Source of the DNA: Bispira polyomma
Lineage: Eukaryota
Assembly: GCA_965649765.1 (NCBI GenBank)
Contig: OZ287756.1
Location: 31,620,001-31,684,000 of the forward strand
Direction: 5' to 3'
Length of the DNA: 64,000 nucleotides
The notes beneath the pieces were generated by a model that worked only from the letters and a program-made list of their open reading frames with translations, ran no database searches and was not told the DNA's origin. Within the stretch, counting starts at the first letter, position 1. Each line of letters starts with the position of its first letter. Positions 7,701-60,142 of this stretch are shown here, piece after piece. Position numbers and translations under genes: made by a program.

Positions 7701-7887
7701 ACCAGGACATTAGCAGTCTTGATTGCTAGTATAGTTTTACTACAACAGAAGGCACACAGATTAGCTGTGAGGTCACAGGCACAGGTACACAGATACTTTT
7801 GATACCACAAGTGGGTGATAGTTTAATGTTTAGCAACATGGAAGGTTTCACTCACCTCTCACTTGCTTAGAAATTATCCAACATGAC

Positions 7888-8041
7888 CAGTCCAATGGTG
7901 GTGTGAAAAGTTATAAGTTAATAAGTAAGTTTATTATAAGACAGTAAAAGATTGCATTTGAGGTTTTTATTTACATGTTAGCTTATGTACAGGTTGACAA
8001 TCAAAGTCAGTTAAAATTTCAGGATGGAATTTTAAGCCCCA
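7888..8041 (-). repeat. E1 terminal repeat B2
   Basis: Identical to 9140-9293; contains AATAAA on the element sense strand. Confidence 0.95.
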
Positions 8042-8916: not shown

Positions 8917-9293
8917 TTTCAATTTTCTAAATGTCCTGTCTACAGGTGAAAACACAAATTCAATATGGAGGATAGCTATCCTAGCTTAGGGGTCACTAAT
9001 AGCTAATGCTGTGATTGGACAAGGCCCAGATGGACAGAAAGTTGGATAATGCTATTGCATTCGCTAGGGATTAAGGTAGTGTGATAGAAAAAGGAGGTTG
9101 GACTGAACTAGCAGTCCCCTGGGGTGGACTTGCTATGCACAGTCCAATGGTGGTGTGAAAAGTTATAAGTTAATAAGTAAGTTTATTATAAGACAGTAAA
9201 AGATTGCATTTGAGGTTTTTATTTACATGTTAGCTTATGTACAGGTTGACAATCAAAGTCAGTTAAAATTTCAGGATGGAATTTTAAGCCCCA
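8917..9293 (-). repeat. E1 internal B1-A2 repeat (circle-junction copy), junction at 9139/9140
   Basis: A2 8917-9139 matches 15223-15445; B1 9140-9293 matches 7888-8041. Confidence 0.95.
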
Positions 9294-9300
9294 AGCCCAA

Positions 9301-10271
9301 CTAAGAAGGAGGGATAGCAGCAGCAAAGAGAGGCACCACTGAAGCAGCTTGGGAGGTCTTCTGTAGGTAGGTCCATACAGCTGAAGACCTCCACAGGCCA
9401 TGGGACATAATATTCTGCAGTGATACGTTTTTATTGAAAGCAAATGTGGCCCCCGACCTCCTAAATGTGTGGAACCCGTGTGAATGGTATGGAATGCCTA
9501 TGTGTTCTAAGACTCTCTGTAATGCGACTCTCACATGTGTCTCTATGACTGGGTAAAATGGTGGTGAGTTAACTGCAAACAGTGGTGCAGATGGAGGGAG
9601 AGGCCTAGACAAGATAAGCTGCTGTATAGCCCTTACTGGACATAAAATTTGGTTTTGAAGTGCAGGAATTTGTATAATGTGGGAGTCTGATCTGTTTTGA
9701 AGGTTCTTAGCCCATTTCAAGATGACATGGGCCCCAGGAGGGGCAAAGATAATATCCTGTCTAAGAAAGTGCCTAGATGGGTCAAACGCTGCCCTAGAGT
9801 GAGAAGCCAGATTGGAAAGTCTCAAGAAGCCGAAAAAGGCTAGAAGGAAAATAGCCCTAAAAAGTACTGGATCCTGCAATATCTGACAAGCTTGGGATAT
9901 CTGTGTTAACTGATGTATATCAAACAATCCCTTAGGTCTAGGCCTGAAAGTAGAGTTGATGGTAATGCTTCTCGTAAATAAAGAAACAGAGTTGTGTGTA
10001 AAAGGAGCCATACTCCACTGTAATTTGTTAGCCATAAATTTAAGTGATGAGAGGTAATTGGCAATGACAGCCGGTGAAAGGCTATTCTGTGCTAAGTATT
10101 CTAAGAAAGCCAGAACTGATGAAACATTAATGTGTTTAATGCCAGCAACATGTAAGAAAGCTAAAAATGTCTTGAATTGGTTACTGTAAGCTGTAGTGGT
10201 CTTTGGTCGCAGTGCCAAGTCTATTCTGTTGCAGGCTAATTGAACAAGTGTATGAGTGGAACTGGCAGAAC
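9301..10271 (-). CDS. Tyrosine recombinase of E1 (probably exon 2 of a spliced Gag-YR mRNA)
   Basis: Catalytic R (GFLRLSN), K (WAKN), HxxR (HTFRR), H (HGLW), Y (WTY) all present; frame open up to the tttcag acceptor at 10272-10273; no ATG at the start. Confidence 0.92.
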
Positions 10272-10277
10272 CTGAAA

Positions 10278-12107
10278 TTACACAGATAAGGCCAGGTCAA
10301 AGTACCTTATAGGGACCTCATTCCATTTATAACAATTTTGTAATTTAACAGTTAGCTCTGCAGTAGGAGGTTTATCTGAAAAAAGTCTAGAAAGCGCATC
10401 TGCAATCACATTATTTTTCCCTGGAATGTGTTGTATGTCAATTGTGATGTCATGTGTGGCTGCAAGCAGCCAGATATTCCTTAAACATGAGGCCAGAAAG
10501 TCATCCTTAGTTTTTTGTGAATTCACAACCAGTACTACGGCCATGTTGTCACAGTGAAACAAAACCCGTTGATGCGCCCACTTTAATGCCCATACACGCA
10601 ACGCGAGAATGATATTCAGCATCTCTAAGTGAACTATTGTCAACTCTCTGCCAAAAACATTGAAATATGGTGTAGCGTACACCTCATCTTTCCACACGCC
10701 TCCTAAACCGGTAAGGCAAGCGTCTAAATGTAACTCACTCATGTTTTGAATCATAGGATGGTCAATGAAAGTTACTCCGTTAAATGTCTGTAAGAACTGC
10801 TTGAACCACGCTAAGTCGTTCCGCATGTCTTGAGAAATAGCAAATTTTTTCTTACCCTCGTTGTTTCTAAATGCGTGAAGCAGTCTATTAATAAAAGTGC
10901 GTGCCGGCTTGACGCATTTGTGCACATACAGAAGTTTCCCTAAGAGGGACTGAAACCGACTGCGCGTTATGAAGCGCCTGTTAAACACGTCGCACACACA
11001 TTCAAGAATCTCTTCTATTTTCCCATGCTGGATGCTAATAGTACCAGCAACAGTGTCAATATTAATACCCAAACAAGTAATGCTAGTACTAGGTGGGGTG
11101 CGTTTGTTGGCATTCATGGGGAGACCTAAATAGTCTAGCAGTTTGGTCAAAATCTGAAAACCCCTGTGAGCCTCTACTCTATTGGAGACGCAAATGTAAT
11201 CGTCGATGTAGCAGAACATATTGAAACCGTTTTTGCACATATATGATGCTATTGCGTCAGAGCAGTGTTGAAACGCCGCGCTGCCATGAATCCAGCCAAA
11301 TGCCACCGCAGGATCTATGTAACTACCCTCTTCAAACTGGATTCCTAATTTTACAGCGTCGACAGGATCTACACGCAAATTACGGAAAGTGCAAGCTACG
11401 TCGATTTTAAACAATACCGGATCATCTGTGACTTTGACCGCACTAGTAATATCATCGATTGTAGGAAATTTCAGAATAAATTTTTTCCCATCAAACATAT
11501 TCTTATCAACATTCTCATTAAGCGAATTGCCTTGTGGGTATGAGAGGTTCAGAATTACCCTACGACTAGTAATGTCCTTGGGACGTGTGAGAAGTGGTGA
11601 ACAATGGTAATGTGAGGAGCTAACCTCCTTCACTGGGCCCAACATGGCACCCTTATTACTTTCTTTAACCAGATATTCTCTCACACTACTTGTGTGTTGG
11701 AGGGCAGAATAATGATTGGTAACAGAGGCATTGTTAAGCATTTCTGGATTGGTGAGAGAAAGAGGAAAGCCGAATCTAATGTACTGACACAGCAACTGGT
11801 CAGGATAATCTTGGAAAACTTCATCCCATGCATCTGGATTAAGTCCTGACACCAGGGGAACCCTTGCTTGTCTATAATTGGGAAGTGCAGTGTCTCTGAT
11901 AACAGAAGCCACTTGCAGCATGTCTTCTACTGTTTCAATTCTCTTAACAGGTTTGTCAGGACCTATGAATGTGAATGCTGTTGAGGAAAGTGCCAAGAAA
12001 CCCATGGTTTTCTCGGGGTCATTAAAGTCCTTAATTTCTTTGTACAAATCCTTGTTTGCTCGAACACTATCAACCATTTGAGTGAATTCATTGCTCGACG
12101 AGTTCAT
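10278..12107 (-). CDS. Reverse transcriptase-RNase H of E1 (C-terminal part of pol)
   Basis: 609-aa ORF with DIRS-type RT (FGW..GS..FQ, YIDD, CLGINID) and RNase H (LDAC, LEMLN, CDN, NVIADALSR). Confidence 0.95.
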   Translation of the reverse strand: MNSSSNEFTQMVDSVRANKDLYKEIKDFNDPEKTMGFLALSSTAFTFIGPDKPVKRIETVEDMLQVASVIRDTALPNYRQARVPLVSGLNPDAWDEVFQDYPDQLLCQYIRFGFPLSLTNPEMLNNASVTNHYSALQHTSSVREYLVKESNKGAMLGPVKEVSSSHYHCSPLLTRPKDITSRRVILNLSYPQGNSLNENVDKNMFDGKKFILKFPTIDDITSAVKVTDDPVLFKIDVACTFRNLRVDPVDAVKLGIQFEEGSYIDPAVAFGWIHGSAAFQHCSDAIASYMCKNGFNMFCYIDDYICVSNRVEAHRGFQILTKLLDYLGLPMNANKRTPPSTSITCLGINIDTVAGTISIQHGKIEEILECVCDVFNRRFITRSRFQSLLGKLLYVHKCVKPARTFINRLLHAFRNNEGKKKFAISQDMRNDLAWFKQFLQTFNGVTFIDHPMIQNMSELHLDACLTGLGGVWKDEVYATPYFNVFGRELTIVHLEMLNIILALRVWALKWAHQRVLFHCDNMAVVLVVNSQKTKDDFLASCLRNIWLLAATHDITIDIQHIPGKNNVIADALSRLFSDKPPTAELTVKLQNCYKWNEVPIRYFDLALSV

Positions 12108-12160
12108 CTATATTTTATCACAAATCAGACTGTTTACAGTCTCACTTGGTTTTTGTGTAC

Positions 12161-12972
12161 TGTTACGGTGACGGGAGCAAGCGCGGTAGCAATTACCGGT
12201 TGCTTTGAGGTTGTAACAGGAAAAGACAAAAAGTTTCACTTAACAAATTTATTTAACAAATAAAATAACAACTACAGAATTACAGAATTATAAAATTACA
12301 AAATTACAAAATTACAGTCAACTGAGATACCCTTAATAGCTCACACAATAATATAATAATGAAATCAATCTGACCTGACCACAGTCCTGTCCACTTAAAT
12401 AACAATTAAACCAGTTTGTCCACTGTATCCAGCAATCTGTCTTGAGATCCGCTCAATGTCCACACAATGCCTGTATCCTGTTATCTGTTCAGCGTCCACG
12501 CACACAAAATGTATATATCCAGAGAATCTGCACAACTAAGCTATCCAGTCCAGGATGCAAACAATATCCAATATGCAGTAAATCCAATCTCTGGTAGATC
12601 CACAACTTTTATCTAGTTCACTCCAATGAGTTCACCACAAAATGTATATAACAAACAGTATAGTAGTTCATATAGCATTCATATAGCACCTCAGCTCAAT
12701 TAAATCTCTTCTGTGGCCAGACTGTCAACCCTTATATATACCACTGCTAGAGAAGGTTGCTAGAATGTGTAAGCAATCGCTAGGACATTCCAGAGATGAG
12801 ATATACATATGAATACAACTTTAATAACCTTCAGAAATAAAATAGAACCGGTTTCTAGAAGCTTAGGGGTTTCCCCAAATCTATAAATAGCTCACTCCAG
12901 CAGAGTGTAAAACCATTAGTACTAACTAGACCGGTTTTTCTTCCACACACCACAATGTCCCCATATGTAACA
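12161..12972 (-). mobile_element. Solo LTR of the Gmr1-like Gypsy family, inserted in E1 pol
   Basis: Reverse-complement match to LTR 54431-55211; TGT...ACA ends; GTAC flanks both sides. Confidence 0.93.
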
Positions 12973-13895
12973 GTACTTACATTTGACAAGTCTGCACAAT
13001 TGTCTGACTTATGGCAATTGTCAGGTGTTTCGTCTTCACTGTCACTAATAAGTGCATCTACTAACCTGGTCATGTATTCAGTATAATCAAAACCCAACTG
13101 CTTGAAACAGGCATTATCTCTTTCGAAATAATAAAATGTATCAGCAGCTTGCTTGATCACAGCCTGGTGATGAGTTTCCACATTAGTATTACTGGTAGTA
13201 TTTAAAGAAACAGCCTGAACCTGGATTATGGTTTGAAAGGTTTGAATAATACAAAGGTTTTGGCTAGGTGGCAATTCAACACGAGCATATACACACTTGG
13301 CAGCAGTCACGTCATAAAACATGTGGAAATAACCTGAGAATTTTCCATCCCTATCCCTAATGTAAACAATTGGGGCCAAATTTTGAATTTCCTCACAAAA
13401 AGTTTTCCAATTGGTAACTGATACCTGACACGTGTGTGCCTCTTTGTTCCAAGCTGGTGAATTAGCATAGTGACTGCTCCCATTTGAAATGCAGGCCTCA
13501 GTGCTCCTGTCCCATCTATGGTGACCCGACTGGGTCCTGCTCTGAAATTGAATACATTCATTTACATTCTTGGTTTCATACTGGTAGTTGTCGCCAGCAT
13601 CTACTGAAACTGCAAAATTATTAAAGACATCATTATCAACAAAGTTCACCTTTATATCAGTGTTGAATACATTATTGACAAACCTTGTACTATCTGACAT
13701 TATCATCTGCTGATAATCATTACTATTGGAACTTTGCACAATTGTATTAATTTCAGACATGCCTCTGTCGCAATAACCTAATTCACTGTTTTTGTCCTTT
13801 ATATTAAACTCTTTTACAAATTTACTGTTACCGTTCATCATTGAATTACCCTTATCACTACCTAATGTTCGTCCAACTGGTTGTGAATCGTGGCC
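12973..13895 (-). CDS. N-terminal extension of E1 pol (unknown domain), cut off by the solo LTR
   Basis: Open frame from just after the gag stop; removing the LTR and one TSD copy restores frame with RT, leaving one TAG at 12108-12110; homologous residues in E2. Confidence 0.75.
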
Positions 13896-15128
13896 CTAGA
13901 TGTTACCTTGTTGTTTGTCTGGCTGTTTACTTACATTCGCTTTAAAGCATTTGAACTCTGGGTGCGACGCGTCCTTTCCTAATGTCTTATTACAATACCA
14001 ACATACATGACGATAATTGCCATGATCCGCCTTGTGAGTACACTTGCCATTATTAAACAGCTTACAGATGGATTTACTATCTGAAGAAGCCCCGTTAGCC
14101 AAGTTACTGCCATTGTTGCCTACCATAGCCATCTGGGAGGCACTGATGCGATTCAGTGCCCACTGAGTGTTGTCCTGCCAGGACAGCCTGCCTTCCTCTA
14201 TCTCATGCATACTGACAGCCCAGGCTGTCCTGACAGCAGGCCACGGAAGTGTGGCTGCATCCCGTAGTGCGTGTACCACTTGGTTCACCATAGCTTTCAT
14301 TGTTGCCGGATAACTTACTTGTAGCGAGTTGGCCAGCTGGCCAGCCGCCCACTGCGGCAACGTGAGGTCGTCAAAGACTGGCCTTCGACGAGTCGATCCC
14401 CCACCCCAACCTTCGTTAGACCATCTGAGTTGGGGATCAGCTAAAGTAATATCTGTGGAGTTATAACGACCAGACTTCTGCCTGATTGAGTGCTTACCCT
14501 GGACTAGACCCCTCTGGGCCAAGGCTTCGTAGTCAGCCAGCTGCCTGGTAACGGCCGCCTGCACATTTGGAAAAGATCTTAATGCATTGAGACTGGGGAC
14601 AATGCCATCTGTGTTGTAACCCTGACCTGTTGGTGGTTGCATCATAGGTTGAGCCAGCGGCTGCGCGACCCCGTTGTACCTGGGAGGGGGAAGAGGTAAC
14701 GAATAACCCTCGTGTCTCTGTTGGACCACCGTACCATCCCTCATGGTGTGTAATGGAGAATTAGCGGGTGTAACTGTCTGTTTGTCCTCTACAAGTTGCA
14801 ATCGCCGGGTTATGTTAGCGTTGGAGGTCTCCAGACCACGCAGAATGGAAAGAACCTCGGACATGCTTTGTGACTCGACTTGTGACTGGGGTACGGCCTG
14901 AGATGAGAGCCCGGCTTGGCTAGATGATCCATTTGAACTGGTCAGTAACTGAGAACCAATAAGAGGACACGCAGTGTCGGCAATGACTGTTCTATGTATT
15001 TCTGATTGATCGTGAGTATTAGTAGTAGTTACCTGACCAGTACCCCTTTTCTTGGCTGTACTAGTTGAAGTTGTCTTTGTGGTCCGTTTCTTGCTGTTTA
15101 ACACAGGAGTTGCTTTTGTTTTCCCCAT
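13896..15128 (-). CDS. Gag-like protein of E1
   Basis: Coiled-coil segment, KSGR motif, W-rich conserved core, C-terminal C-x4/5-C-x-H...HVC-x2-C...H..C cluster typical of DIRS/Ngaro ORF1; first ATG at 15128. Confidence 0.9.
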   Translation of the reverse strand: MGKTKATPVLNSKKRTTKTTSTSTAKKRGTGQVTTTNTHDQSEIHRTVIADTACPLIGSQLLTSSNGSSSQAGLSSQAVPQSQVESQSMSEVLSILRGLETSNANITRRLQLVEDKQTVTPANSPLHTMRDGTVVQQRHEGYSLPLPPPRYNGVAQPLAQPMMQPPTGQGYNTDGIVPSLNALRSFPNVQAAVTRQLADYEALAQRGLVQGKHSIRQKSGRYNSTDITLADPQLRWSNEGWGGGSTRRRPVFDDLTLPQWAAGQLANSLQVSYPATMKAMVNQVVHALRDAATLPWPAVRTAWAVSMHEIEEGRLSWQDNTQWALNRISASQMAMVGNNGSNLANGASSDSKSICKLFNNGKCTHKADHGNYRHVCWYCNKTLGKDASHPEFKCFKANVSKQPDKQQGNI

Positions 15129-15222: not shown

Positions 15223-15445
15223 TTTCAATTTTCTAAATGTCCTGTTTACAGGTGAAAACACAAATTCAATATGGAGGATAGCTATCCTAGCTTAGGGGTC
15301 ACTAATAGCTAATGCTGTGATTGGACAAGGCCCAGATGGACAGAAAGTTGGATAATGCTATTGCATTCGCTAGGGATTAAGGTAGTGTGATAGAAAAAGG
15401 AGGTTGGACTGAACTAGCAGTCCCCTGGGGTGGACTTGCTATGCA
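15223..15445 (-). repeat. E1 5' repeat A1
   Basis: Matches 8917-9139; contains CCAAT (sense) and the palindrome aggatagctatcct. Confidence 0.95.
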
Positions 15446-18400
15446 AATCACATTCATATAGAGCAGACAATTAGCTCTGTCAGTTGTTACATGGCACCAC
15501 AGGCCATTACACAAAGCTTTAATTATAATACAAGCTCCACTAGTGTAACAAAAGGGAAAGGGCCCATTCTAGAAAACAGCCACAACAACTCTGATGTGAA
15601 CAATCATTCATTCAATGTCAGAATGGCCATTCAACTGGTGCAATTTGGAAATACAGCTGTATCTGGCTGTAAGGGGTCTCACACAAAAGAAATGTGTGAC
15701 AAAACATTTAACCCAGTCCAAGGTAGAGCCTTTTGTATAAGTGGGGGGTAGCACAAAAGAGTGGCTGGGTGGCTTTATACCCATACAAGCAATAACCTAT
15801 AAAAGCCCTAATTACTCATTTCCACTGGACAGAATTACTTACCTTATGCATCAGAATAACTATTGCGTATCCTCGTTTTTGGATGACTGTTTTGGAAAAG
15901 CTACAAATGCTTTTTTAACTTTGCAAAATCTAATAATAAACTTTAGGCTCCCAATTAATCAAGACAAGGTTGATGCACCCACTTCAAACTTTATTTGTTT
16001 AGGAATACATATTAATGCCAAAACAGGATTGTTAACAATACCCACAGATAAATTCTCAGAGGCCAAAAGTTTATGTGTCGCATGGTTGCAAAAGGGCTAT
16101 CAGGAAAAGCCTCAAAACGCTACTAGGGAAATTAATTTATATGCACCGATGTGTGAAACTAGCATGGCTATTTATTAATAGAATATTAGTAGTCCTTAGG
16201 GGACCACCCCCATGTGGCTATTAAGTTGACTCCAGGTTTCTATAAATATATTAAATGGTTCTGCCAATTTCTAGTGAAGTACAAGAGGTTACATAATACA
16301 ACAATGCACACCAAGTATTTGTGGATGCTCCACTAAGTGCAATGAGGTCATTTTAAGAGGTTCTTGGAAGGCACCTCTCCTCAAATACAAACAAAAAGGG
16401 GTCTCTGTAGCGGGAACAGCCTATAAAGTACGGGTTCACCTGGCAAGATTACTAAAGCAAATCAGCTGCTTCCAACAGAATTTGGCTTTCATTCATTGCG
16501 TAGTTAGGGGGCATCATGAGCATTTGACCATGGCGTTGACTTAGATTACATAAAGGTTCATCTGGAAATACTTGGTAGGGACCCAGTAGCAGCAGGGTTG
16601 GTAGAAAGTACCTTTTCTCAGCACCTAGCCACTCCTACAACATAAACACACACACATAATGGTTTTGGCTTGATGCATGCATTATATATGACATCATCAG
16701 ATCTCAGTTTGAGCATTGTCAGTTATCACAGTTCATTATCACACTATATTAGGGGAGCCATAATGGGTTCCCGCTAAAACACCTACCTTTGGAAACCCAG
16801 ACCAACACTGGTTAGTTTAAAATAAATCCCGAGTGTGTCAGAAAGCAAATTTCTCACCCACCCTCAGTCCCTCGGCAAGTAGGTTTCGTAGAGGCATTAG
16901 GGCTTGGACAAGTGTGCGATGTAAATGTTGGCCCATGTTAAGATTTTTTATACAGGAACATAATATAGAAAACTACTTATATAAAAGTGTATTAAAGAAA
17001 GGCATAACCTAAAAGTAATGAAAATTCAGAAGAACAATTACCTTTTTGGAATAGGTACCATCAGGATCTGATCGACACTTAATCTAGAAAGGCTTATCAC
17101 TTATTTGAAATAGTTTATTTTTCATCATGGCTTTAAATGAGGATCTCTGTTTATATCTTATTTCTTAAGTTATTCAATAATCTCTGTACCGGGTAAACTT
17201 TGCCCTATTAATAACTGGTGATGTTTTTTAAACTGTCCAGCTTTTCCATATAATCTATGTGGTCTAAAGAAGGTATTTTAAAAGTAGCCATCTTGACTTC
17301 TAGGACACTGTCGAGTTTGATTTATATAAACATCAAGAAGTCATAACTTAAATTTGCAATTACAATTCCATTTCTTTATTGGAGTTTACCCCAATGTAGT
17401 AGAAAAGCAATGTAAATTCAATTTACACCTACGTGTATGTGTGAAACGTATTAGCTTCTTGGGCTTATTACATGGGATCGTTAAATGTCCGATTTTGACA
17501 GTTATTGAGTTAACAAATCTTTTAGTACTTTACAACACTGGTGGAATCTAATGTTAAAATATTTATAAGGTCATTTTGTATTGCATAGCACATATTTGAT
17601 GCATTTCCATTATTATTATTTGCTAAACTTTCACTTGGTGGACATTATTTTGAGGTGCGGCCCACCAACGGAAATGTACAGAAATTACTGGATCACTGGG
17701 CAACCAATAGGATAATTTAGAATATTCCCATTTACTGCTGAACTTTACTTGCTCACTGGTGTAAACTGGGTTTAGTTTTGAGTAATTCAGTATTTCACTA
17801 TAAAAGCCAGTATTCTGATCAGAAACATTGCAGAGCTGGTATGAACTAATGTTCTTGATTCCCTCTGGCTGAACAATCATTTCTGATATATGATGGCAGA
17901 AAATATGTAAATGAACTAATAATGTTCTGATTAAGACTTAGCGGGATTGACTTCTTTTAATCTTAAAAGGCCACAGATTGAACTAAGTACTTGGTATAAT
18001 TTTGACTGGTAATGTTTAATATGGGAATTGTTTAGTTAGGTAAACTTAAACTCAACTTCCAGGTCAACCCCAGCTTTTGCTAGTTAGATACTAAGCTGGT
18101 ATAAGGTATAATATTATGGTTTATATCTTGGGAAGTGGGATTCTGTGGGAAATGTAGAACTAATATTCTATTTAGAATGTAGATTGTATTTTACAAAGAC
18201 TATACAACCTTCTATTATTTAATGAAATAAATATATATTAAGATAACATTACAGTTTGTTATTTGTGTATACTTGTCTCTGACTAGTAGCTTGGAATGCT
18301 ACATGTGTAAATGGATTAAAAACTGTTTTAATCACACAATTTAAATTTGGCTAGTACAAACACAAAGGAAGGAAATGGTTACTGACGCTAAATCCATTTA

Positions 18401-26215: not shown

Positions 26216-26973
26216 CTGATAATATTATTTAGAAAGCCAGTATTATAGTTATTTCTTTGCATATTGACATTGAAGTTGGCTACAAAGTTAGATTGTATTC
26301 AAGGTCAGAATATGTTTATTCAACTCATGAATTATCATGCAAATACAAACTGGTTAGATTTAAGTGCATATCAAGTATTTTAAAATCTTTACTATTAATT
26401 TTTAATTTTTAAATTTAACACAAACCAGTTTGTAATCATATTGTTGTATGAACCAACAATCAAATTTAATATTTTTTTCTCAATAAACTAATCTGATCTA
26501 GTCCATTTTAGGGACTAAATCGTCCCTTTGGGAGTATGCAACCATCACATTCTACTGATTTCCAAAGCCAAGGTCGAAGACAAAAACAATTAGTATTCAG
26601 CACAGGGGAAGAAGGGCTATGTTGAGAACATTTGTTAACAAAAATGTGACTTAAGATGTTTTCTAAAGGGTAAATGCTCTTTGCTGTACTTATGCATGGT
26701 GAAAAATTATTCTGTAAAGAATATTTTGCATCCTGAAAAAATTGTAATGTGTCAACCACATTTCATGTTTGGTATAACAGAGTGTGATCTAATGACTTTG
26801 CAAGAAGACACCTCTGCAAAGTATGATCTGAATAGGATAGGATTTTGACAGCAACCATGACCTAAAATAGCACATCAGCAAAGTAAACTTGTCCCGGGTT
26901 ATATTGGTTATATTGAGATTTTCATTTACAGAGTGTTTAAATAGAAGTGATAAAGTGAATCTGTTTGCCTCAC

Positions 26974-27114
26974 CCAATATACAGTCTTCTCCAGTTCTCC
27001 CAGCTATACACCCATTTGTACATGTTAGTATTTCTGAAAACTTCTCACACTTAGCATCTGTGCAGTTTTCAGAATATGGTTTACAATCTATTCCAAATGT
27101 ATCCTCTTCACATT
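26974..27114 (-). CDS. EGF-like repeat exon (MEGF10/SREC-like), gene A
   Basis: 141 bp, phase 1-1, tttcag/gtgag; CEEDTFGIDCKPYSENCTDAKCEKFSEILTCTNGCIAGRTGEDCIL. Confidence 0.85.
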
Positions 27115-27224
27115 CTGAAATGGAGTACAGTAAAAGAGTAATTTATACAGACTACTTCTGTGAATCTATATTTGCAGATAGTTTATACGTGTAATTAGGT
27201 GATTATAAATTTTTATTTTCTCCC

Positions 27225-27365
27225 CAAGTGAACAATCATCTCCAGTTCTCTCAGCTATACACCCAGCTGTACATGTTAGTGTTTCTGAAAACTTCTCACA
27301 CTTTGCATCTGTGCAGTTCTCAAAACATGGTTTACAGCCTATTACATAGGCATCCCCTTAACATT
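27225..27365 (-). pseudogene. Dead EGF exon copy
   Basis: TAA directly after the first Cys codon; donor GT mutated to GG. Confidence 0.85.
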
Positions 27366-28427
27366 CTGAAATAGAGTACAATACAAGAATAATTTGTAGA
27401 AATTTGTAGTACTATGTTTTGCATTTGAAAATGTTGTTCAAATCAGAATTCCATTGCATAACAGATAAACAATATATAACATTCCGGATGGTCACAAACT
27501 ATTCATAATCTAAATGACAGAGGTACCAGAAAATATAAGTTTAGATGCAGTTTCCAAAAAACTTTCTAGTTCTAGTTCTTTAATAGTTCTGTCAATAGGT
27601 AAACCTTGCCATATCTAATGTTCATGCGTTTTATTTTTGTTAATTACTTATTTTCTGTTATTCTGTCTCAATAAGTAGGGCTCACCATTAACATTTAGAG
27701 ATTATATCCATTGAAATAAAATGTCTATTTCTATCCATATTAAAATGGATATACTCAACATAGTATATCACTGCTCTCTTCAGATTTTGAATTTTTGAAT
27801 TGTTCAGAAACAGCCAACGAGCAACAGTAACTGTCCCACATAACCAGGTATATCACCTGGCTACTGGGAATATGTATAACAATGACAGATGTAAAACATT
27901 TAAATTATTCAATTAGTAAGCACTATAATCCTATGCAGGAATGTTACCATCTAGGCCATAGTTGAAGAACCACATATTGTTTTCTGTGGTGTGTAAGTTT
28001 AAAGTTTTGTCAATCTGCATAAGGCAAGCTAAAATAGTTCATGGAAGAGCCACACAAGTGTATTATAATGAAAACTTCCCTGTGGCATGTACACACATTT
28101 TTTGTGACATTAGAATATCAAGGATAATATACAGCTGGTGATATAAAGCATCACAAATGTTACAAAAAGTACATATTGGCAATCTAGTAATGATTTCTAG
28201 TCAGCATTACAATGCATATACGCCAGCTAAAATATCCAGTTGGAATTTGTGAGTACAAAAACACATCTCCCAAAATTACACATCATCTGTGTCAAGTTAT
28301 CTTAGTATCTTAATTTATTTTCTGTTTTATTTGAACCTAACTTATTATAATGATAATTTGGCATCTTCATTGACAGAGTGTTTATATAGGTGTGATAATG
28401 TGATTGAAATCAATTCTATTGTCTCAC

Positions 28428-28568
28428 CACTTGAACAATCATCTCCAGTTTTACCAGCTACACACCCATCTGTACAGTTCTGTGTTTCTAAAAACTTCTC
28501 ACATTTTGTATCATTGCAATTCTCAGAAGACGGTTTACAACCTATTCCATACGTATCCCCTTCACATT
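28428..28568 (-). CDS. EGF-like repeat exon, gene A
   Basis: 141 bp, phase 1-1, open; CEGDTYGIGCKPSSENCNDTKCEKFLETQNCTDGCVAGKTGDDCSS. Confidence 0.85.
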
Positions 28569-29302
28569 CTGAAATGGAGTACAGTACAAGTATTTTTTGT
28601 AGTTATGCATAGTGCAAGGTTTTGTATTTAAAATTTTTGTTAGATTCAGAATTTCATTGAATAGGAGATAAATAATAGATACAAATCTGGGAAAGTGGAC
28701 AAAACATTTAGAAATCTTTAGTTGAAAGACAGTAGTAAACATAATATAAGTTTAGATATATACCTTCCTATAACATATAACAGATTTGTAAAGGTTGAAA
28801 CTAAATATATTTCCTCTAAAGATGTCAACTACTGACTGACAGGTCACTATACATGTTTGAAAATATTGCAAATTGATTGTACAAAGGGTAATATAGGGTA
28901 TCTGCAAAATGTCTTAAGAATGCTTCTTAATTTTCTAATATACATGACTTAATGCACTTTAGTTTCAAAACAGCTCATTATTATTGAGTCTCAATAATTA
29001 GGTTGGTCCTGTACATTTAGAGAATAAGTCTATTAAAATAAAATGTTTTACTCCAGGCAGTACTTCCCTGTTCTCTGCAAATAACTGCCACACATCATCA
29101 GGGTATATCACCCTGAAACTGAGAATAAGTACAATAATGAAAGGTGTGCAACATTTAAATGGTTGACTGAGGAGACACTATAATCGTATGAAAGAATGTT
29201 TTCATCCAGGTCATGGTGGAAGAACACTTATTCCAGGTTCTATATTTTAGTGTTGGACCATGTCTGTATACTGACTACTTTAGGGGATCTTTATTTTCTC
29301 AC

Positions 29303-29443
29303 CTAGTGAACAGTCATCTCCAATTGTACCAGCTATACACCCATCTGCACAGGTCATTGTTTCTGGAAACGTCTCACACTTTGCATCTGTGCAGTTCTCA
29401 GAACATGGTTGACAACCTATTGAATAGTTATCCCCTTCACATA
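29303..29443 (-). CDS. EGF-like repeat exon, gene A
   Basis: 141 bp, phase 1-1, open; CEGDNYSIGCQPCSENCTDAKCETFPETMTCADGCIAGTIGDDCSL. Confidence 0.85.
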
Positions 29444-30429
29444 CTGCAACAGAAAGTACAAAATTTTATGGGTAAGTGGTTCTGACCAATAATGTACATT
29501 CTAACACAGAATACACGATACAATTAATTTACAGTCAGTCCACTTTAGATGGTACGATAGTATAAGGATGAGATGCAGAACATAAGTATACAAGTCAGTG
29601 AAGGAATTCTATTTTTTACATGTTAGTAATATGTACAGATTTACAATAGTAAAATTACAATGGCTACTTTAAACTGTTAAGCCCAACACAGACACATAGA
29701 ATGGTTAATACTTGAGAATATAGGATCAGCCAACCTAAATGCATATAAACAAAATAATAAAATAGTTAAATTAGCACACAAATCATAACAGAAAGTATTA
29801 TCACTGAAGTTTATGTGCATAAAATATCCGATACTGTTACATTACAAAGAATATGCAAATGACCATAGCATTGGTGTGTTATCATTGGTGAGAGCTTAAA
29901 GGCCATCAATCTGACATACAACTACATTCTGGTAAGTGCAAAAATATTGAAATTCAACTTAAACTTCATCAAAACTATAAAAGGTCCATATCCTACACTA
30001 AATGGTGTCTTTTGAATTAGCTACATTGACATTTTTACAAGGATTTGCCAACTAGTATCAACCTGGAATCAGTCCTAGTAAGTCCTGCATTACTGACTCT
30101 TCCCGACTTATGCCTAACAATGGGTTTATGTTGAACAAGATAATAATAGTCTGCCAACTGCTGGATTACTGGGGCTTTAATATTCAGGAATTATATTAAA
30201 GTCTCTACATTTGACATAATCCTATCCCTCTGAAATTTCTGGTCTAACTGGGAGTAGTGTCTACTAGTACTGGCCACTTTCCACAATTGACCGAGAAGGT
30301 TAATTTGAATGGAATATGTAGCTATTTCCTTTTGTGCTGTAGATTTATTTGCAGATCTATTGGGTTTGTTATGTAACATTCATCAAGTCTTTTTCTGAAA
30401 CGCAAAATATATCTGTATTGTCCTTAATA

Positions 30430-37355: not shown

Positions 37356-37862
37356 AATATTATGTGTGTTGACCCCCTTGGAATTACCTAGGGTTACCTA
37401 CAATATTATTTGTCGTGCTAATGAAAAGTTTTTAGAAATGCTCTTTTAGCATTGTTGATATTATGATCATGAGACCACTGTGATAAAAGTCTGTAAACAC
37501 ATTGCTGTTACCACTAACATGTTTAATTATTATAAGCTGTGTTAGCCTGCTGAACCCATTGAAGCATCATGTGCTATTCAATTCACATGTGTTACTGGGG
37601 GATAAAACTAATTGGACTAATTAAGTGGGATAAATGCCCTTAAGGAACGAATACATATGTCCGATTTTGCCTCATCAGGCGTCCATTTCTGTCATCCTAA
37701 AAAATCAAAATATAACAAAATAGAGAAATCGAATGCCCATTGTCACCTTGTCAAAATAACAGAATCTGCACCAGTTGTAACCTCTCTATGATGGCTTCTG
37801 CTGCCATTTTTGTGTTATTTGAGCCTAATGCACGTTGTAAACAAACAACTTATGTTTGCGAC

Positions 37863-38632
37863 TGTTACATATAAGGACATTGTGGTATGTTAAAGCACTC
37901 TGCTAGAGTGATCTATTTATATATTTGGGGAAACCCCTAAGCTTCTAGAAGCTGTTTCTATTTTGTGTTCATGTGTAAAGTTGTGTTCATATGTATATCT
38001 CATCTCTGGAATGTTCTAGCGATTGCTTACATATTCTAGAGCCTTCTCTAGCAGTTGTATATATAAGGGTTGACAGCCTGGCCACAGACCAGAGTTAATT
38101 GAGTTGAGGTGCTATATGAACTGCTATACTGTGAAACATTTTATTTCTTTTCCTGTGGGTATAAACGGATTACTACATATGTTTTTGTGGTGAACTCATT
38201 GGAGTGAACTAGATAAAAGTTGTGGATCTACCAGAGATTGGATTTACTGCATATTGGATATTGTTTGCATCCTGGACTGGATAGCTTAGTTGTGCAGACT
38301 CTCTGGATATGTACATTTTGTGTTCGTGGACACTGAACGGATAACAGGATACAGGCATTATGTGGACATTGAGCGGATCTCAAGTCAGATTGCTGGATAC
38401 AGTGGACAAACTTGTTTAATTGTTATTTATGTGGACAGGACTGTGGTCAGGTCAGATTGGTTTCATTATTGTATTATTGTGTGAACTATTAAGGGTATCT
38501 CAGTTGACTGTAATTCTGTAATTATGTAATTGTTATTTTATTTGTTAAGTAAATTTGTTAAGTGAAACTTTTTGTCTTTTCCTGTTACAACCTCAAAGCA
38601 ACCGGTAATTGCTATCGCGCTTGACCGTAACA
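37863..38632 (+). mobile_element. Solo LTR of the Gmr1-like Gypsy family
   Basis: Matches 54431-55211; TG...CA ends; 5-bp TSD GCGAC (37858-37862 / 38633-38637). Confidence 0.95.
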
Positions 38633-38701
38633 GCGACACCATATTAATTGTGCTACAATGTACCTTAGAGTACATATTAGTTCTACTACTGAAGTTAATA
38701 C

Positions 38702-46902: not shown

Positions 46903-48632
46903 CTGACATATAGTATATAATGTTGTAAGTATAGTGGCTCATACACTAAATTATAAGTGAATTATTAACTACTAATAGTACTAGCAAAAGAATCGCAGAA
47001 TGCAATATTTTAATTCAAAGTTACACCATTGTTGTTATCTTAATATATAGGTATTTTTCAATATTTGGGGAAGCTACAAGTGTTATATACAGATATTTTG
47101 GTATCCCAAGATAGTGTAAGTACTTGCTATGTTTATTGTCGGACCTATTTCAACACTATTATCAATAACAGATAAAACAATGTCAATGCAACCTAAATAA
47201 TTGGCTTTGTAGTCTGAATTTGACAGAGGAATAAAATAAACACATACACTAACATTTAATATTCGAATATGAATTCAATTAAAGTACATCAGGTATATCC
47301 ATGCAGTGTACATGCCTTAAAGCATTGTAGACAGTTGGACAACTGAGCAACTTACTCATTCAGCCTTATGACCTGTTTTCTCAATTTTTGTATTGGCTTA
47401 TTGATTCTGATGTAGGAGATGCCTAGCATCAATAAAATGCATTAAAAATGTACAATACAATGTACAATACAATACAACTTACACATAGACAACCATAAGG
47501 ATTGCCTTCACATGCTATACCTAGAATAATTTTAACAAAACATAGCAGTAAATCAAATAAAATAATAGAAATAAAATAGACAAATTGGGTTAATATACAA
47601 ACTTAATAATCAGAAAATATGTTTAAATCTTGTTTGAGGCATCACTTTTTATCCATCTACTGCAGTATCACTGACTACTTTGAAGTATACACTGGGAATC
47701 ATCCATATAGTGTGGTATAGCAGAGTGTGATCTAATGACTCTAGAAGCAGCAACCTCTGCAATGTCTACATACTCATAAGGTCTCACGATAGACGCTTGT
47801 GAAACATTCAGCTTCAAGACAACTTCATTTTGTTGCACTCAAAATATGATTCTATTCACTTAAGTGATAACTTCATTTAAATTGATCGTGCAATCTACAT
47901 AAATGTATCTTATGATTAACAATGTAAAAGGCTACTGACAAGACTAATTTTACATGTATGCTGCATTCACCCCTGTTAGCAGCCAAAATAAGGTCGTTTT
48001 TATTAAATAACAGTGTCGGTGCTGTGATACTTTTGTTTGTATTTAATCTCTAACTACCTTGTCCAGTAATTTTGATGTAAAGATAACTAGGAGACTTTCT
48101 TTTCTAAAAGAGTTTAGTGTATTTTTTTAATATTGGGGTTACAATTGAGCGTTTGAAGATTGATGGTACACTGCCTTTTCAAGTGACAGATTGGTGATCC
48201 TTGTTAAAAAAGGTTTGAATATTGTGATAATATTTTGTGGCTGGTTACTTTGTTTCTGGCAGTCTGATACATGTAGTTATTCTGTTTTATTAGTATTATG
48301 CCCCTGTACATTTACATAATATCTCTATGAAAAGAACAATATTTGCATCTTATATCTGCTAATTTACATCATCTTAATTACACCAGAAGAGCTAACCACC
48401 ACAAAAAAAACGTCACCCATTTCCAAGGCATATTAACTTGCTGCTAAGGATAGGTACCACAATGACTAAGGCACTAAATTTGAACTGAAATAAGGGACTA
48501 TTATCATGTATAAAAATTTTACCATCAAGGCCACAGTTTTATTGTGAGACCACCTTTCTTTACTGACTACTTTCTATATTTGTATAGGTATTTCATACAT
48601 GTGATTGAGTGATTGTGTATATATTTACTCAC

Positions 48633-48773
48633 CAAGTGAACAATCTTGTCCAGTTTTACCAGCTATACACCCATCTGTACACCTCAGTGTGTCTGAAAAC
48701 TTCTCACACTTTGCATCTCTGCAGTTTTCAGAACATGGTTGGCAACCTATTCCATAGGTTTTCCCATCACATA
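48633..48773 (-). CDS. EGF-like repeat exon, gene B
   Basis: 141 bp, phase 1-1, tag/gtgag, open; CDGKTYGIGCQPCSENCRDAKCEKFSDTLRCTDGCIAGKTGQDCSL. Confidence 0.88.
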
Positions 48774-49022
48774 CTACAATAGAAAGTACAAAAATGTATG
48801 TTTTGCTATATACATCTACAGCTGTAATTATGTGTTTGATAATACCAGTTTCTTTAAGGTTTGTAATTTTGTTTCAACTGAAAAAGCAAATTATGAAATA
48901 TACTTGGACTGTTTATCATAAAAACTATTTATTGTGTCACTAAAGGGCGATATAATGACTTTAAAGAGAAATGTCCCACATTTTTTTGCTTATGTAATGA
49001 CTTCTGCACTCAAACTTAATCT

Positions 49023-52000
49023 CAGTCCCCGTTGTTAAGGTTGATATAGAAGGTCAGAGTTATATAAGTGAGTTTAAATGTGTAAGTTGTGGTGAAGTTT
49101 ATGAACACAGAGATAGTAAAAGATTTCACTTTGAGGGCTATACAAAATAGCTATACAAAATAAATATCATGGATGATCTTGGATAATATATGTTCTGTAG
49201 GAGTGTTTTATGAAATGTGATTGTAGTGTATATGTAATGTATTTTTTATGTTGAAATGTACCGTTGTAGTGTATATGTAACGTATTTTTTATATTGAGAT
49301 GTACCATTGTAGTGTATATGTAATGTATTTTTATGTTCAGATGTACCATTGTAGTATATATGTAATGTATTTTTTCTATTGCATGGCGTTAACCTTGATA
49401 ATGTATTCAGGTCTTGTAAAGCATTGTAGTGTATATGTAATTGTGCTTTTATGTTCAGATGTATGTAATGTATTCATGGCTTGTAAACCATTGTGGTGTA
49501 TATGTAATGTATTTTTGTGTTCAGATGTAATATATTCATGTCTTGTTTAAAAAAAAAAAAAAAATGGTGGTGGGAAGTTAAAATAATTTTCACTTGTTGC
49601 TTCTTCAAAGTCAATCTCAATATGGCAGTATAATCCCAAGAAAAACCAGGGAATGTTCATTAATTTAGCAATGTGATTGGCCCTAGCATAGCTATGGTAA
49701 AATGTCCTGAGGATAGCTATACCTAATTTTTAATTAAGGTGGTGTGTTGTATTTAACGTTGACTGAGATAGCAGTCTCCTGAACTAGACATGCTTAGCAC
49801 AGTCCCCGTTATTAAGGTTGATATAGAAAGTCAGAGTTATATAAATGAGTTTAAATTTGTAAGTTGTGGTGAAGTTTATGAACACAGAGATAGTAAAAGA
49901 TTTCACTTTGAGGGTTTATTTTTACATGTTAGTAGTATATGTACATGATATTATATAAAAGGTAAAATGCTTCAAAATTATATTTAAACATCACAAATCT
50001 TTACAGCCCCATGCCAAACCAAGGAATAGTGGGAGATGGCAGAGGCTAAATGGACCACTGAGGCAGCTTGTGAAGTATTTTGTAGCTATGTCCACACAGC
50101 AGATGACCTCCACAGTCCGTGGGCCATAATGTTCTGGAGTGAGACGTTTTGGTTGAATACAAAAGTGGCTCCCGACCTTCTGAATGCCTGGAATCTGTGT
50201 GAACTATGTTGAATGCCAATGTGTTGTAAAAGTTTTTGTACAGCAGATCTTACATGTGAATCAATAATTGTGTGATATGGTGGAATTTTTGATGTAAACA
50301 GTGGTGCCTTGTCCGAAATTTGTCTGGACAAAAGCAGTTTCTTAAGAGCTAAGACTGGGCAGATGTGAGAATTTTCCAGTAGTGGAATCTGAATTATATG
50401 AGTGTCAGTTCGATTTTGTAAATTTTTTTTACCCCATTTCAAGATCATATGAGCTCCTGGGAGACCAAAAATGACATCCTGTCTAAGAATATGCCTGGTA
50501 TTGTCAAACGCTGATTTTGAATGAGGAGCTATGTTTGATAACCTCAAGAAACCAAAAAAGGCTACTAAAAAAGTAGCCCTAAAGAGTAATGGATCATCCA
50601 GGATTTCACAAGCTCTAGATATGAGAATAAGCTGTTCTATGGTAAAAATACCTAAGTCTTAAATTGTGCATTGTATGCTGTAGATGTCTTTGGTCTTAAG
50701 GCTAAGTTAATTCTGGCATTGGCTGAAGCCATCAAAGCTTGGCTGATGCATGTAGAACCTCAAATTATATAGATAAGTCCAATTTGAAGTATTCAATTGG
50801 TACTTGATGCCATTTAAGACTGCTGTCTATTTTATTTGTCTCGATCCGACACCTTGTCTAAATACAATCCAGACAATGCATCTGCAATAACATTTTCCTT
50901 ACTAGGAATATATCTAATTTTAAGACTAATGTCATAAATAGCTGTTAGTAACCAGATGTTTCTTAAGCATAAGTCCAAAAATCTATTTCTGTTTTTTTGT
51001 GATTCGAAAACCAGAACCATAGCCATGTTGTCACAGTTGATCATTAGACTACCATGTCTCCACTCCTCAGCCCATACATGTAAAGCAATGATTATGTTTA
51101 ACATTTTGAGATGTACGCATATCAATTTTTACGATTGTCAATGTCCGTACATTGCTGAAAAGCCGCGCTTTCATGCACCCACCCGAATGCAATTACAGAG
51201 TCCACATAGTACTCATCTTTCCAAGAAATTCCTAGCTTTATTGCATCCACAGGGTCATCCCATAGGTTCCTAAATGCCCTGTCCACGTCAATTTTGAACA
51301 AGGTGGCATTTTCTGTATCTCGTATGGCTTGTGTGATGTCATCAATTGTTGGACATTTTAATACAAATGACACCATCGAATTTATCCCTGTCGACTTTGT
51401 AATTAAGCAAGTTGCCATATGGATGAGACAAGTTCAAAATTACTCTGCGTTTATTAATATCTTTGGGTTTAGTGAGAAGTGGCAAACAATGGTAGTCTGA
51501 AGTTTTTTCTTCCTTAACTAGACCTAACATGGCCCCTAAGCAGGTTTCTTTCCTAAGATATTCCCCAAACTCATAGGGATACTGTAAAGCTGAGTAATGA
51601 TTCTTTACCTTAACATTTTCTAACTTAGTGGGAGTCCTTAAACATAGAGGAAAACCAAATGTAATATATTGTAGTAATAGCTTGTCAGGATAATCCTGAA
51701 GCATGTGCTACCAAGCTTGTGTATTCAGCCCAGAACTTAGTGGTATTCTGGCTGATCTATAGTTTGGAACTTCTGTCTGTTTTATAATTAGAGCAGTTGT
51801 AATCATGTGTTCTACTGTTTTATATGTATTGGCTGTTTTTATGGGCCTTGAAATTCAAAGTCAGTGTCTGAAAGTGCAATGAACCCTACAGTCTTATTTT
51901 TGTCATTAATATCAGTGACCATCCTGTTGATTGGTTCACTAGCCCTTACCATATAAGTCATTTGGGAGAATTTGAACGATGCAGGGTGAGTATATTTTTC

Positions 52001-54143
52001 ATCACAATAACTTACCATGCTTATAGTACTGTCAGAGCTACTATGTCTATTCTGTACAGACTCACCTATTGACTTTACATTTACTTCAGTACTGACTATA
52101 TTTACATCTTCACAATATTCAATTAACTTGTCAATTACATTTTCTACAAATTGAGTATATGTTTTACCATTAAATTTTAAACACTGCATATCTCTTTGGT
52201 AAAAATAAAAATCATTACTGGCTTGCTTTTGTTGCTCAGCTGAAATTCATTCAATGCCATCAATGTTTATAAATGGTATCTCATTGTCTTTACTAATCAA
52301 TGTTTCAAAGACATTAATGATATACAACATACAGTTGGGTTTGAAGTCCAGAGGAGTGTAGCATTCCAATCCAGTGGCACTATCAGTGTAACTATAATAG
52401 AAACATTTTGCCAACATCACCATAGGTGTTTTCAGAAATGTTCTCAGATATTATATTTGACAAAATATTATGATTACAGTTTGACTTATTATTATCTCTC
52501 AGAAACCAATCATTTTTTTATTTTTTTTTTCTACATAACTAAAGTTGTTTTTACTTGAGAAATTGTCCTCATTTACTGTTAAATCTACAGTATTTACCAA
52601 TGTTCCTTCCTGCTTAACTGGTTGTCGAATGACTCCCTAACTGATTTTTACATTTTGGCTGTAAGATTGCTTGCTTGAGTTTGCCTTAAGACATTTAAAT
52701 TCGGGGTGACCAGATTCCTTTCCTAAAACTTTGGCACAGTACCAGCTTTGATGCTTATAGTTTCCATGATCATTTTTGTGACTGCATTTACCATTGTTAA
52801 ATAGCTTACATATTGTTTTCTGTTCTGTAGCATTGGACGTACCCTGGTGGTGGTTGTTAACCATGGCCAACTGAGTCACACTCATTCGATTCAGTGGCCA
52901 TTGCGTGCCATCTTGCCACATCAAGCGTCCCTCCTCAATTTCATGCATGTTCGATGCCCATGCCGTCCTCACCACAGGCCAAGGGAGTGACAAGGCATCT
53001 CGAAGCATGAATACTATCTGGGTCATCATGTCCCTCATTGCTGTGTTATCTGCAACAAGGAGCACATTTGAGATTTGTCCTGCCGCCCATTGTGGTAGCG
53101 ACAGGTCATCATAGGCGGGCTGTTTATGAGAAGAAGTGGTGACGTTCGTTGCTAAGCAACCCTCGTTGGGCCAACGGTATCTTGGATCAACTGTGGCAAC
53201 ATCAGTTGAATAAAACCTGCCAGACTTAACCCTTTGGTTTTGCTTAAACGACTCATAACTGGCTAACTGGCGTGTGACTGCTGACTGCACGTCAGGCATG
53301 GAGTGAAGGGTCTCTAAGTTGGGAACAATACTATCCCGGTTGTATTCGTGGTGTGTGAGCCCCAGTAGTGGTTGTTGTGTGATTCCGGCTCCCGAAGGCG
53401 GAGTGTAGCGTGGCAGTAGTAAACTGGTGGCCTTGAGACCGCCACGTCCAAGTGTTGTAGCACTGCTCATAAACTGGTTAGAATTACTGACCGAGTCGGT
53501 AGCTGTGGCCGTTTTCACTTCAACTTTTTCAAGCCTAGATTCTAATCTTCTCAGTATTTCTAGCCTCTCGTTAGGTGGATCTTTTGATGGTTGTAAATTG
53601 ATAGGTGGCTGTATAAACTGGCCTGGAACAAAGCAGCACTCGATGTAGAAGTTAACGGTTTGTCTACTTTGGCAAGATGGCTACGAAGAGCCCGAACAAT
53701 ATTATCAGTTACCTGTGAACTGTCTGCTCCTCTTGTAGCTTTCAACACCTTGGTTTTATGGTTGACTGCCTTCTTTGTCTGTAGAGGGGTTTTATTCGTC
53801 TTACGCATGGCTATATGAACACACAAATCCAGTAACACCTTCCTTATAGTATGGTAAATGATAAAATGTAAAGTTTAAAACAATTCACTAAAAACAAATC
53901 TTGTATAAATCTCCATGTAAGTTAAAATAATTTTCACTTGTTGCGTCTTCAAAGTCAATTTCAATATGGCAGTATAATCCCAAAAAAAAACGGAAAATGT
54001 TAACTAATTCAGCAATGTGATTGGCCCTAGAATAGCTATGGTAAAATGCCCTGAGGATAGCTATACCTAATTTTAAATTTAGGTGGTGTGTTCTATTTAA
54101 CGTGGACTGAGATAGCAGTCTCCTGAAGTAGACGTGCCTAGAA
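49023..54143 (-). mobile_element. Ngaro-type YR retrotransposon E2, degenerate
   Basis: A1 53919-54143 / A2 49575-49799 (225 bp); B1 49800-49914 / B2 49023-49137; gag ~52637-53808 frameshifted; RT lacks the YxDD region; YR partly deleted with its catalytic Tyr codon changed to TAG (50086-50088). Confidence 0.92.
49215..49564. repeat. ~42-bp minisatellite plus A-run in the E2 spacer
   Basis: Units of gtagtgtatatgtaatgtattttttatgttcagatgtaccatt. Confidence 0.8.
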
Positions 54144-55218: not shown

Positions 55219-55240
55219 TGGGGGCTCGTCGTCCGGGATT
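55219..55240 (+). promoter_or_regulatory. Primer binding site complementary to tRNA-Pro
   Basis: tgggggctcgtc(gtc)cgggatt versus canonical TGGGGGCTCGTCCGGGATT. Confidence 0.85.
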
Positions 55241-55318
55241 TAACCATTTGATCTAACTATTTTTATAGCTTTTTGAAAAATTATTTATTTTGTTTGAAAA
55301 TATATTACAGTGCTCAAA

Positions 55319-59946: not shown

Positions 59947-60131
59947 AGGTTATTTTGTATGTTAGTAACTGAAAAGTAAAGTTGTAAAACTTAGATGTTT
60001 ACTTATGGATATTACTTGTGTAACTTAAAATACAATGTTCCATGGAATGTTAATACATATGTACACTGTATATTTACTTATGTTTTGTGTAATATGAAAT
60101 TTTGTAACCTTGGCTTCCAAAATTTTTCTTC

Positions 60132-60142
60132 AAGGGGGGAGG
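60132..60142 (+). promoter_or_regulatory. Polypurine tract
   Basis: aaggggggagg directly before the 3' LTR. Confidence 0.9.

Follow-up and report, generated by a model that had tools for sequence, protein, structure and literature searches.

The gammaretrovirus MuLV has a spacer of 8 bases between the stop codon and a pseudoknot (PMC8310308, PMC2194720; articles given here by PMC number are represented by parts of their text). Tombusvirus readthrough requires pairing over about 3.5 kb (PMC3234231), and stimulators that act on readthrough over long distances are an established feature of plant RNA viruses. In reporter tests, readthrough was not directed by the MuLV-like junction of the Candida albicans retrotransposon Tca2 (PMC2194720). 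The layout of the Ngaro retrotransposons is defined in PMC8547959, PMC9210276 and PMC3266345, in which the absence of a methyltransferase domain sets them apart from DIRS1-like and PAT elements. For the tyrosine recombinase (YR), frameshifting has been proposed by Poulter and Butler 2015, as quoted in the available part of PMC13003380. The expression of three proteins by elements of the DIRS order is not settled in the literature covered. A literature search that took in few subscription papers and reviews found no description of gag-pol readthrough in a DIRS-order element and none of a long-range readthrough stimulator in a retroelement; neither is mentioned in the available parts of PMC3783388, PMC9210276, PMC6681497, PMC7192593, PMC8547959, PMC3266345 and two preprints. 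The lineage described here offers signals for two of the expression steps that are testable at the level of single bases.

The window is a stretch of 64,000 nucleotides from the Bispira polyomma assembly, a eukaryotic genome of 1.04 Gb (contig OZ287756.1, positions 31,620,001 to 31,684,000). Its minus strand carries the element E1, whose repeats and single large insertion are as follows.

15223..15445, minus strand: split direct repeat A1, the 5' end of E1 (223 nt, 100% identical to 8917-9139)
9135..9293, minus strand: repeat B1 (direct-repeat comparison)
8917..9139, minus strand: repeat A2 (223 nt, 100% identical to A1)
7883..8041, minus strand: repeat B2, the 3' end of E1 (direct-repeat comparison)
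12161..12972, minus strand: solo LTR inserted in the pol gene of E1, with TG...CA ends and a 4-base GTAC duplication on both sides

The split direct repeats follow the order A1-[ORFs]-B1-A2-B2, with A (223 nt) and B (154 to 159 nt) each present twice. Pfam searches of E1 detected RVT_1 and RVT_3 as well as Phage_int_SAM and a weak Phage_integrase match; no match to rve (DDE integrase) and no methyltransferase domain was found by Pfam, and pol stops shortly past RNase H. The repeat order, a reverse transcriptase (RT) together with RNase H, the tyrosine recombinase and the absence of a methyltransferase match indicate that E1 is a Ngaro-like tyrosine-recombinase retrotransposon. The A1-ORFs-B1-A2-B2 arrangement, a gag-like ORF, RT/RNase H, a YR that overlaps the end of pol and the absence of a methyltransferase domain are all common to E1 and the Ngaro retrotransposons. 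An ORF of the size of an SGNH hydrolase 3' of YR is absent in the sister copy L031.

The E1 copy in the window is broken by the solo LTR in pol, which derives from a Gypsy-type element at 54.4-60.9 kb. This element (window 54428-60932, plus strand) has LTRs that are 99% identical and a frameshifted gag-pol, and the window holds two of its solo LTRs, at 37856-38641 and, inside E1, at 12161-12972. Other YR-type RT fragments adjoin E1 (15741-16178, plus strand) and the downstream parts of two sister copies (L031, L038), and a clustering of YR-type elements near these three copies is possible. Elsewhere in the window, repeated exon-sized units at 26960-29565 and 48619-48895 translate to Cys-rich EGF-like text and probably belong to a host gene on the minus strand.

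The gag and pol regions of E1, and the corresponding junction of a second, decayed element (E2), are located as follows.

13896..15128, minus strand: gag-like ORF of 410 codons with a Cys/His-rich C-terminus, ending in TAG (ORF and sister-copy comparison; relatives in other assemblies)
13895..13898, minus strand: gag stop UAG with G at +1, the predicted readthrough site (sequence and junction alignment)
12973..13895, minus strand: 5' part of pol, a variable linker in frame with gag (ORF and sister-copy alignment)
13035..13442, minus strand: conserved beta-rich and helical domain in the N-terminal region of pol (predicted structure and sister-copy conservation)
10278..12160, minus strand: 3' part of pol with reverse transcriptase and RNase H (RVT_1, RVT_3; without methyltransferase match)
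52617..52639, minus strand: gag stop UAG-G and 5' helix strand of the decayed element E2 (sequence comparison)

The gag stop-to-stop frame (15140-13899, minus strand) has 414 codons, with its first ATG at 15128 and its TAG at 13898-13896, and the same frame is open for 346 codons beyond this TAG. The gag-like ORF had no Pfam family. An earlier note on this DNA had read the junction of E1 as ATC TAG GGC CAC GAT TCA CAA CCA GTT, with an in-frame ATG at 13841, and that of E2 as AGT TAG GGA GTC ATT CGA CAA CCA GTT, with the stop at 52639-52637; both readings are correct. The note also had the gag frame continue into pol. The two genes do occupy one frame, but in the window copy the solo LTR stops this frame before RT. 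In sister copies without the LTR insert (L031, L034, L035, L042-L044), the TAG is followed by 933 open codons through RT and RNase H. This differs from the overlapping gag and pol frames given for Ngaro elements in the parts of PMC8547959, PMC9210276 and PMC3266345 available, since gag and pol of E1 are in frame across a single stop. The N-terminal domain of pol has 136 residues, with five strands and two helices in the predicted structure (pLDDT 76), and searches of Pfam, PDB sequences and Foldseek gave it no meaningful match. It sits where retroviruses carry the protease.

The junction was followed through the first 170 loci from the same genome, which gave 133 distinct junctions; 5 of these did not align, leaving 128. 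TAG-G was present in 119 of the 128 aligned junctions, TAG with another base at +1 in 2, and scattered sense codons in 7 (TGG three times and four other sense codons once each). Neither TAA nor TGA was found at the gag stop in any of the 128, so that frame and stop type do not differ between copies within the lineage; a difference in either would, according to the earlier note, have refuted readthrough. TAG and the G at +1 were invariant in all 20 subfamily representatives, whose Gag C-termini are 56-91% identical (median, 64). The UAG-GG conservation claimed by the earlier note thus holds for UAG-G, while +2 is free (A in 10, G in 7 and T in 3 of the 20 representatives). Nine subfamilies (L031, L045, L051, L119, L131, L137, L192, L196 and L198) have 886-1015 open codons directly after the TAG; such counts lean favorable, as the representatives were chosen partly for long open frames. 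These nine keep pol in the gag frame with linkers that differ by many indels, indicating that the in-frame arrangement exceeds chance. The invariance of the gag stop alone is weak evidence, because the stop of YR varies almost as little (TAGT in 26 of 27 loci). This YR stop, TAG-T at 9301-9304 of the window (minus strand), lies a few bases before repeat B1. No fused Gag-Pol protein of 747-2130 residues scored, which counts as weak evidence, and alignment of Gag against metagenome and viral contigs gave no confirmed match.

The bases that follow the stop have a predicted partner far downstream, within pol itself.

13876..13889, minus strand: 5' strand of the predicted long-range helix, spanning +7 to +20 past the stop (covariation)
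10520..10533, minus strand: 3' strand of the predicted long-range helix, in the RNase H codons V-L-V-V-N (covariation)
51002..51015, minus strand: RNase H partner strand of E2, with one mismatch; third-best partner in this decayed copy

In a blind duplex scan of 12 loci, a single RNase H site was the best or near-best partner of the post-stop bases in each of the 10 loci that extend as far as this site. The best-partner site was common to 12 of 12 loci for the post-stop segment versus 5 of 12 for a control segment at +40. The partner is the V-L-V-V-x stretch of the RNase H motif D-N-M-A-V-V-L-V-V; the R-N-I-W codons had been considered as the partner and were rejected in favor of this stretch.

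For the covariation analysis, 73 loci with a TAG junction and a colinear motif were grouped into 21 clusters, and the longest open copy stood for each; all 21 subfamilies come from one genome. From +9 to +20, 222 of 252 positions were Watson-Crick paired, a count that leans favorable in that the RNase H site was first seen in the 12-locus scan and 10 of those loci are among the 21 tested. Non-cognate pairs reached a Watson-Crick fraction of 0.65, and the observed 222/252 was reached by 0 of 20000 permutations, which ignore kinship. When the register was slid, 31-118 positions were Watson-Crick, versus 222 in the true register. Position +14 was paired in 21 of 21 subfamilies, as A-U in 12, U-A in 5, G-C in 3 and C-G in 1, and its partner is a synonymous third position. 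The pairs at +9 were U-A (12) and C-G (9), those at +17 were mainly C-G (17) and U-A (3), and those at +19 mainly G-C (16) and A-U (4).

Because the permutation ignores kinship, base changes were also counted on a tree built without the motif. Changes on this tree were common to the base and its partner in 3 of 3 cases at +9 and 4 of 4 at +14, with two such changes at +17 and two at +19. None of the 30-37 control RNase H columns matched the shared-change counts of these four positions; the covariation of +11 and +20 does not exceed that of control columns by the same count. By mutual information among 119 variable columns, the true partner came first at +9, +14 and +19; it was second at +11, +17 and +20, third at +8 and eighth at +10. 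A search of the whole element for partners placed this RNase H site first in 20 of the 21 subfamilies. Its distance from the stop is 2064-2796 bases (about 2.5 kb), and in L187 the helix register fails in part. The post-stop bases co-vary with the codons of RNase H, some 2.5 kb further downstream, to which the predicted helix pairs them. The sequence CAACCAGTT, which the earlier note regarded as conserved at a fixed distance from the stop, is accordingly not itself fixed and changes together with its RNase H partner. A displaced CAR-YYA (TMV-type) motif at +13 was considered and rejected, as the variants CGA CCA, CTA CCA and CCA CCA track the RNase H partner.

A downstream stem or pseudoknot, whose prediction the earlier note had proposed, was found in neither form when 20 representatives were folded. 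Folds of +1 to +60 and +1 to +100 gave z values of -1.7 to +2.2 and no stem common to the 20 representatives; the folding program has no pseudoknot model, though the first stem of a pseudoknot would show.

Relatives in other hosts were sought by RT alignment, which gave nine metagenome loci, three of them without the gag end and two (L174, L179) not readable as gag-stop-pol. The remaining four, Ngaro-like elements (L171, L172, L173, L177), have the gag end, a TGA, and an open in-frame pol of 718-1095 codons, and in three of them the stop is TGA-C. No helix with RNase H was found in these UGA-type loci.

The recombinase is encoded in a frame of its own, and conserved sites resembling splice signals occur within gag and before this frame.

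9301..10271, minus strand: tyrosine recombinase frame without a conserved ATG (Pfam and locus comparison)
14492..14500, minus strand: phase-1 5' splice donor-like site AGG/GTAAGC with GT at 14497-14496, the predicted Gag-YR donor (conservation; the slash marks the splice position here and below)
10271..10300, minus strand: TTGAC branch-point-like motif (10300-10296), a T-rich tract that contains the pol stop, and a CAG/G acceptor-like site (AG 10273-10272), phase 1 (conservation)

In 34 of 35 loci, the donor-like site, mostly AAG/GTAAG, precedes the TAG by 575-617 bases; by site weights it was the best phase-1 site in 27 of 30. The acceptor-like YAG/G occupied one position in 29 of 31 loci, with a T fraction of 0.47, a branch-like motif in 25 of 31 and an upstream AG in only 3. 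Among the other-host loci examined, acceptor-like sites were present in 6 of 6 and G/GTAA sites in 3 of 3. The donor and acceptor phases match, so that a splice would join 210 Gag codons to YR. Judged by the conservation of both sites, a spliced Gag-recombinase mRNA is very probable. YR would then be made as the first 210 Gag codons joined to the start-less YR frame, and the predicted intron of about 3.4 kb would remove the gag stop, pol and both helix strands. No intron-less copy across the YR acceptor was present among the 40 best DNA matches, and three runs of unrecorded kind yielded only contigs, with even coverage and no joining at the predicted splice positions, which weighs neither for nor against expression or splicing. 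For the Ngaro YR, the conserved sites here point to splicing, whereas the review quoted in PMC13003380 proposed frameshifting.

The observed frame, stop, covariation and splice-site-like conservation are best explained by a Ngaro-like element with a conserved in-frame UAG-G, in which Gag-Pol would be made by readthrough, likely helped by the predicted helix with RNase H. A probability of roughly 0.68 is assigned to this reading. Programmed readthrough in a YR retrotransposon, as the earlier note proposed, gains support from the fixed frame, the TAG-G in 119 of 128 junctions and the absence of a conserved pol AUG, and such readthrough is quite probably the source of Gag-Pol. It is likely that the long-range helix acts as its stimulator. 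The Tca2 junction, which failed in reporters (PMC2194720), and the UGA-type loci, in which no such helix was found, count against this reading. Most ribosomes would stop at the UAG and release Gag from unspliced RNA. The predicted helix would comprise 11-14 base pairs between the post-stop bases and the RNase H codons. With the UAG in the decoding site, a helix 7-9 bases further on would sit at the mRNA entrance, the position of the MuLV pseudoknot, where it would slow termination and let a near-cognate tRNA win in a minority of cases. Since both helix strands lie inside the predicted 3.4-kb intron, synthesis of Pol would be confined to unspliced RNA in which RNase H is retained. More speculatively, ribosomes that go on into pol would open the helix and so lower readthrough for a short time.

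A different division of labor, in which the UAG-G context alone drives readthrough and the helix serves intron looping for Gag-YR splicing, packaging or cDNA folding, is unlikely. The location of both strands inside the predicted intron would suit it, and so would the UGA-type relatives, which keep an in-frame junction without the helix. G-U (10) and A-C (9) are equally common in the helix of the 21 subfamilies and favor neither strand, so that the helix could act in minus-strand RNA or single-stranded cDNA; single-stranded cDNA is made by DIRS-1 (PMC7192593, in the part available). However, 16 of 21 subfamilies begin to pair at +7 to +9, L180 among them despite its three extra bases, and an in-register extension to +5 and +6 pairs in only 5 and 2 of the 21. 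A helix for splicing or packaging has no reason to track the stop and is disfavored by this register.

Readthrough stimulated by the helix also has to be weighed against routes that bypass the stop. Pol could come from a spliced mRNA in which the gag donor is joined to a phase-1 CYAG at +16 to +19, or to the TAG itself as acceptor. Of 22 representatives, 18 do have a phase-1 YAG, in the donor's phase, between +4 and +23, but the T fraction there is 0.20 versus 0.47 at the YR acceptor, and a branch-like motif accompanies 1 of 18 sites versus 25 of 31. Where the AG is lost through an A at +19, a compensating T is found in RNase H in 4 of 5 cases. The TAG, for its part, would be an acceptor in phase 0 behind an A-rich upstream tract, and it is TGA in other hosts. 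Splicing as the source of Pol is thus very unlikely.

Initiation at an AUG of pol itself (13841 here), whether by reinitiation or on an RNA that starts internally, and with the in-frame position simply inherited, is still less likely. An in-frame ATG is always found upstream of the first conserved pol domain, and a minor promoter has been described at the Tca2 junction (PMC2194720, in part). The AUG at 13841, from which a pol start would have spoken against readthrough, is not conserved among the 20 representatives: the first in-frame ATG of pol varies from codon 2 to codon 97, and out-of-frame ATGs precede it in 16 of the 20. All 20, chosen in favor of open copies, reach their first ATG without an in-frame stop, which follows by construction, while the other two frames are stop-rich. 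The least likely route is A-to-I editing, by which some of the RNA would carry a tryptophan codon instead of the UAG, as happens at the amber site of hepatitis delta. Such editing would explain the constant UAG here and fits the TGG in 3 of 128 junctions, but the UAG lies outside the helix, the other four sense codons are found once each, as expected of ordinary decay, and other hosts have UGA.

More distant YR lineages of the same genome were sampled at 60 loci, some of which were fetched twice. No in-frame gag-stop-pol arrangement was found among these 60. In 24 of them, pol is in the -1 frame and the overlap contains A AAA AAC, a slippery sequence for -1 frameshifting. This -1 set consists of L203-L219, L241-L244, L250, L252, L253, L256 and L259, and a stop and GGCACTGC often follow the A AAA AAC. 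The loci of this set are candidates for -1 frameshifting with a downstream stem. In a further 20 of the 60 loci (L201, L220-L229, L231, L232, L234-L237, L239, L254, L255), pol is in the +1 frame and gag ends in GTT or CTT before the stop. Across diverged families of this +1 set, gag ends in Q-R-V (CAG CGR GTT, once CTT) right before the stop, and this gag end is a candidate +1 frameshift site. The remaining 16 loci were unclear or other. With -1 and +1 frameshift-type junctions in the sister lineages, a recoded Gag-Pol fusion seems to be what these lineages make in common.

On balance, a broader reading is favored, although it is less firmly held. The retrotransposon would gate the synthesis of its polymerase through a helix between the gag stop and RNase H; this helix would test the RNA for being unspliced and intact, and the ribosomes that it lets pass would melt it. 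Together with the Gag-YR splice, this would form a full three-protein plan, and the lineages of the order within one genome would switch among readthrough, -1 frameshifting and +1 frameshifting. If true, this would explain why reporters that carry only a short junction may overlook genuine readthrough, as in Tca2; other gag-stop-pol elements would be worth scanning for distant partners.

The Ngaro lineage has in common with MuLV a single UAG between gag and pol of the same frame, and a structure, predicted here, that begins about 8 bases 3' of the stop (+7 to +9 in 16 of 21 subfamilies). The in-frame gag-UAG-pol arrangement on which the earlier note based its comparison with MuLV is therefore upheld, but no local stem or pseudoknot was found, and the role of stimulator would fall to a helix whose second strand lies about 2.5 kb away. 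The conserved purine-rich spacer of MuLV has no counterpart, as +2 to +8 vary freely and are not strongly purine-rich. In place of the local pseudoknot of MuLV, the partner strand lies 2.1-2.8 kb away in RNase H, and unlike in MuLV no recognizable protease follows the stop. With the tombusvirus PRTE-DRTE interaction, the lineage shares kilobase-scale pairing 3' of the stop and a polymerase encoded downstream of it. In the tombusvirus, a plant RNA virus, the pairing partner of a large local stem-loop is a replication element at the 3' end, and the function is proven (PMC3234231), whereas the Ngaro helix starts beside the stop, has its partner in the coding sequence of the read-through gene, belongs to a retrotransposon, and has a predicted role. 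Tca2 is likewise a retrotransposon with an in-frame stop between gag and pol, and its local sequence was insufficient for bypass (PMC2194720). It differs in being an LTR element with a UGA and a proposed local pseudoknot, and the available part of PMC2194720 names no long-range partner. The signal of the Ngaro lineage combines MuLV-like readthrough with a tombusvirus-like distant partner and is a member of neither class.
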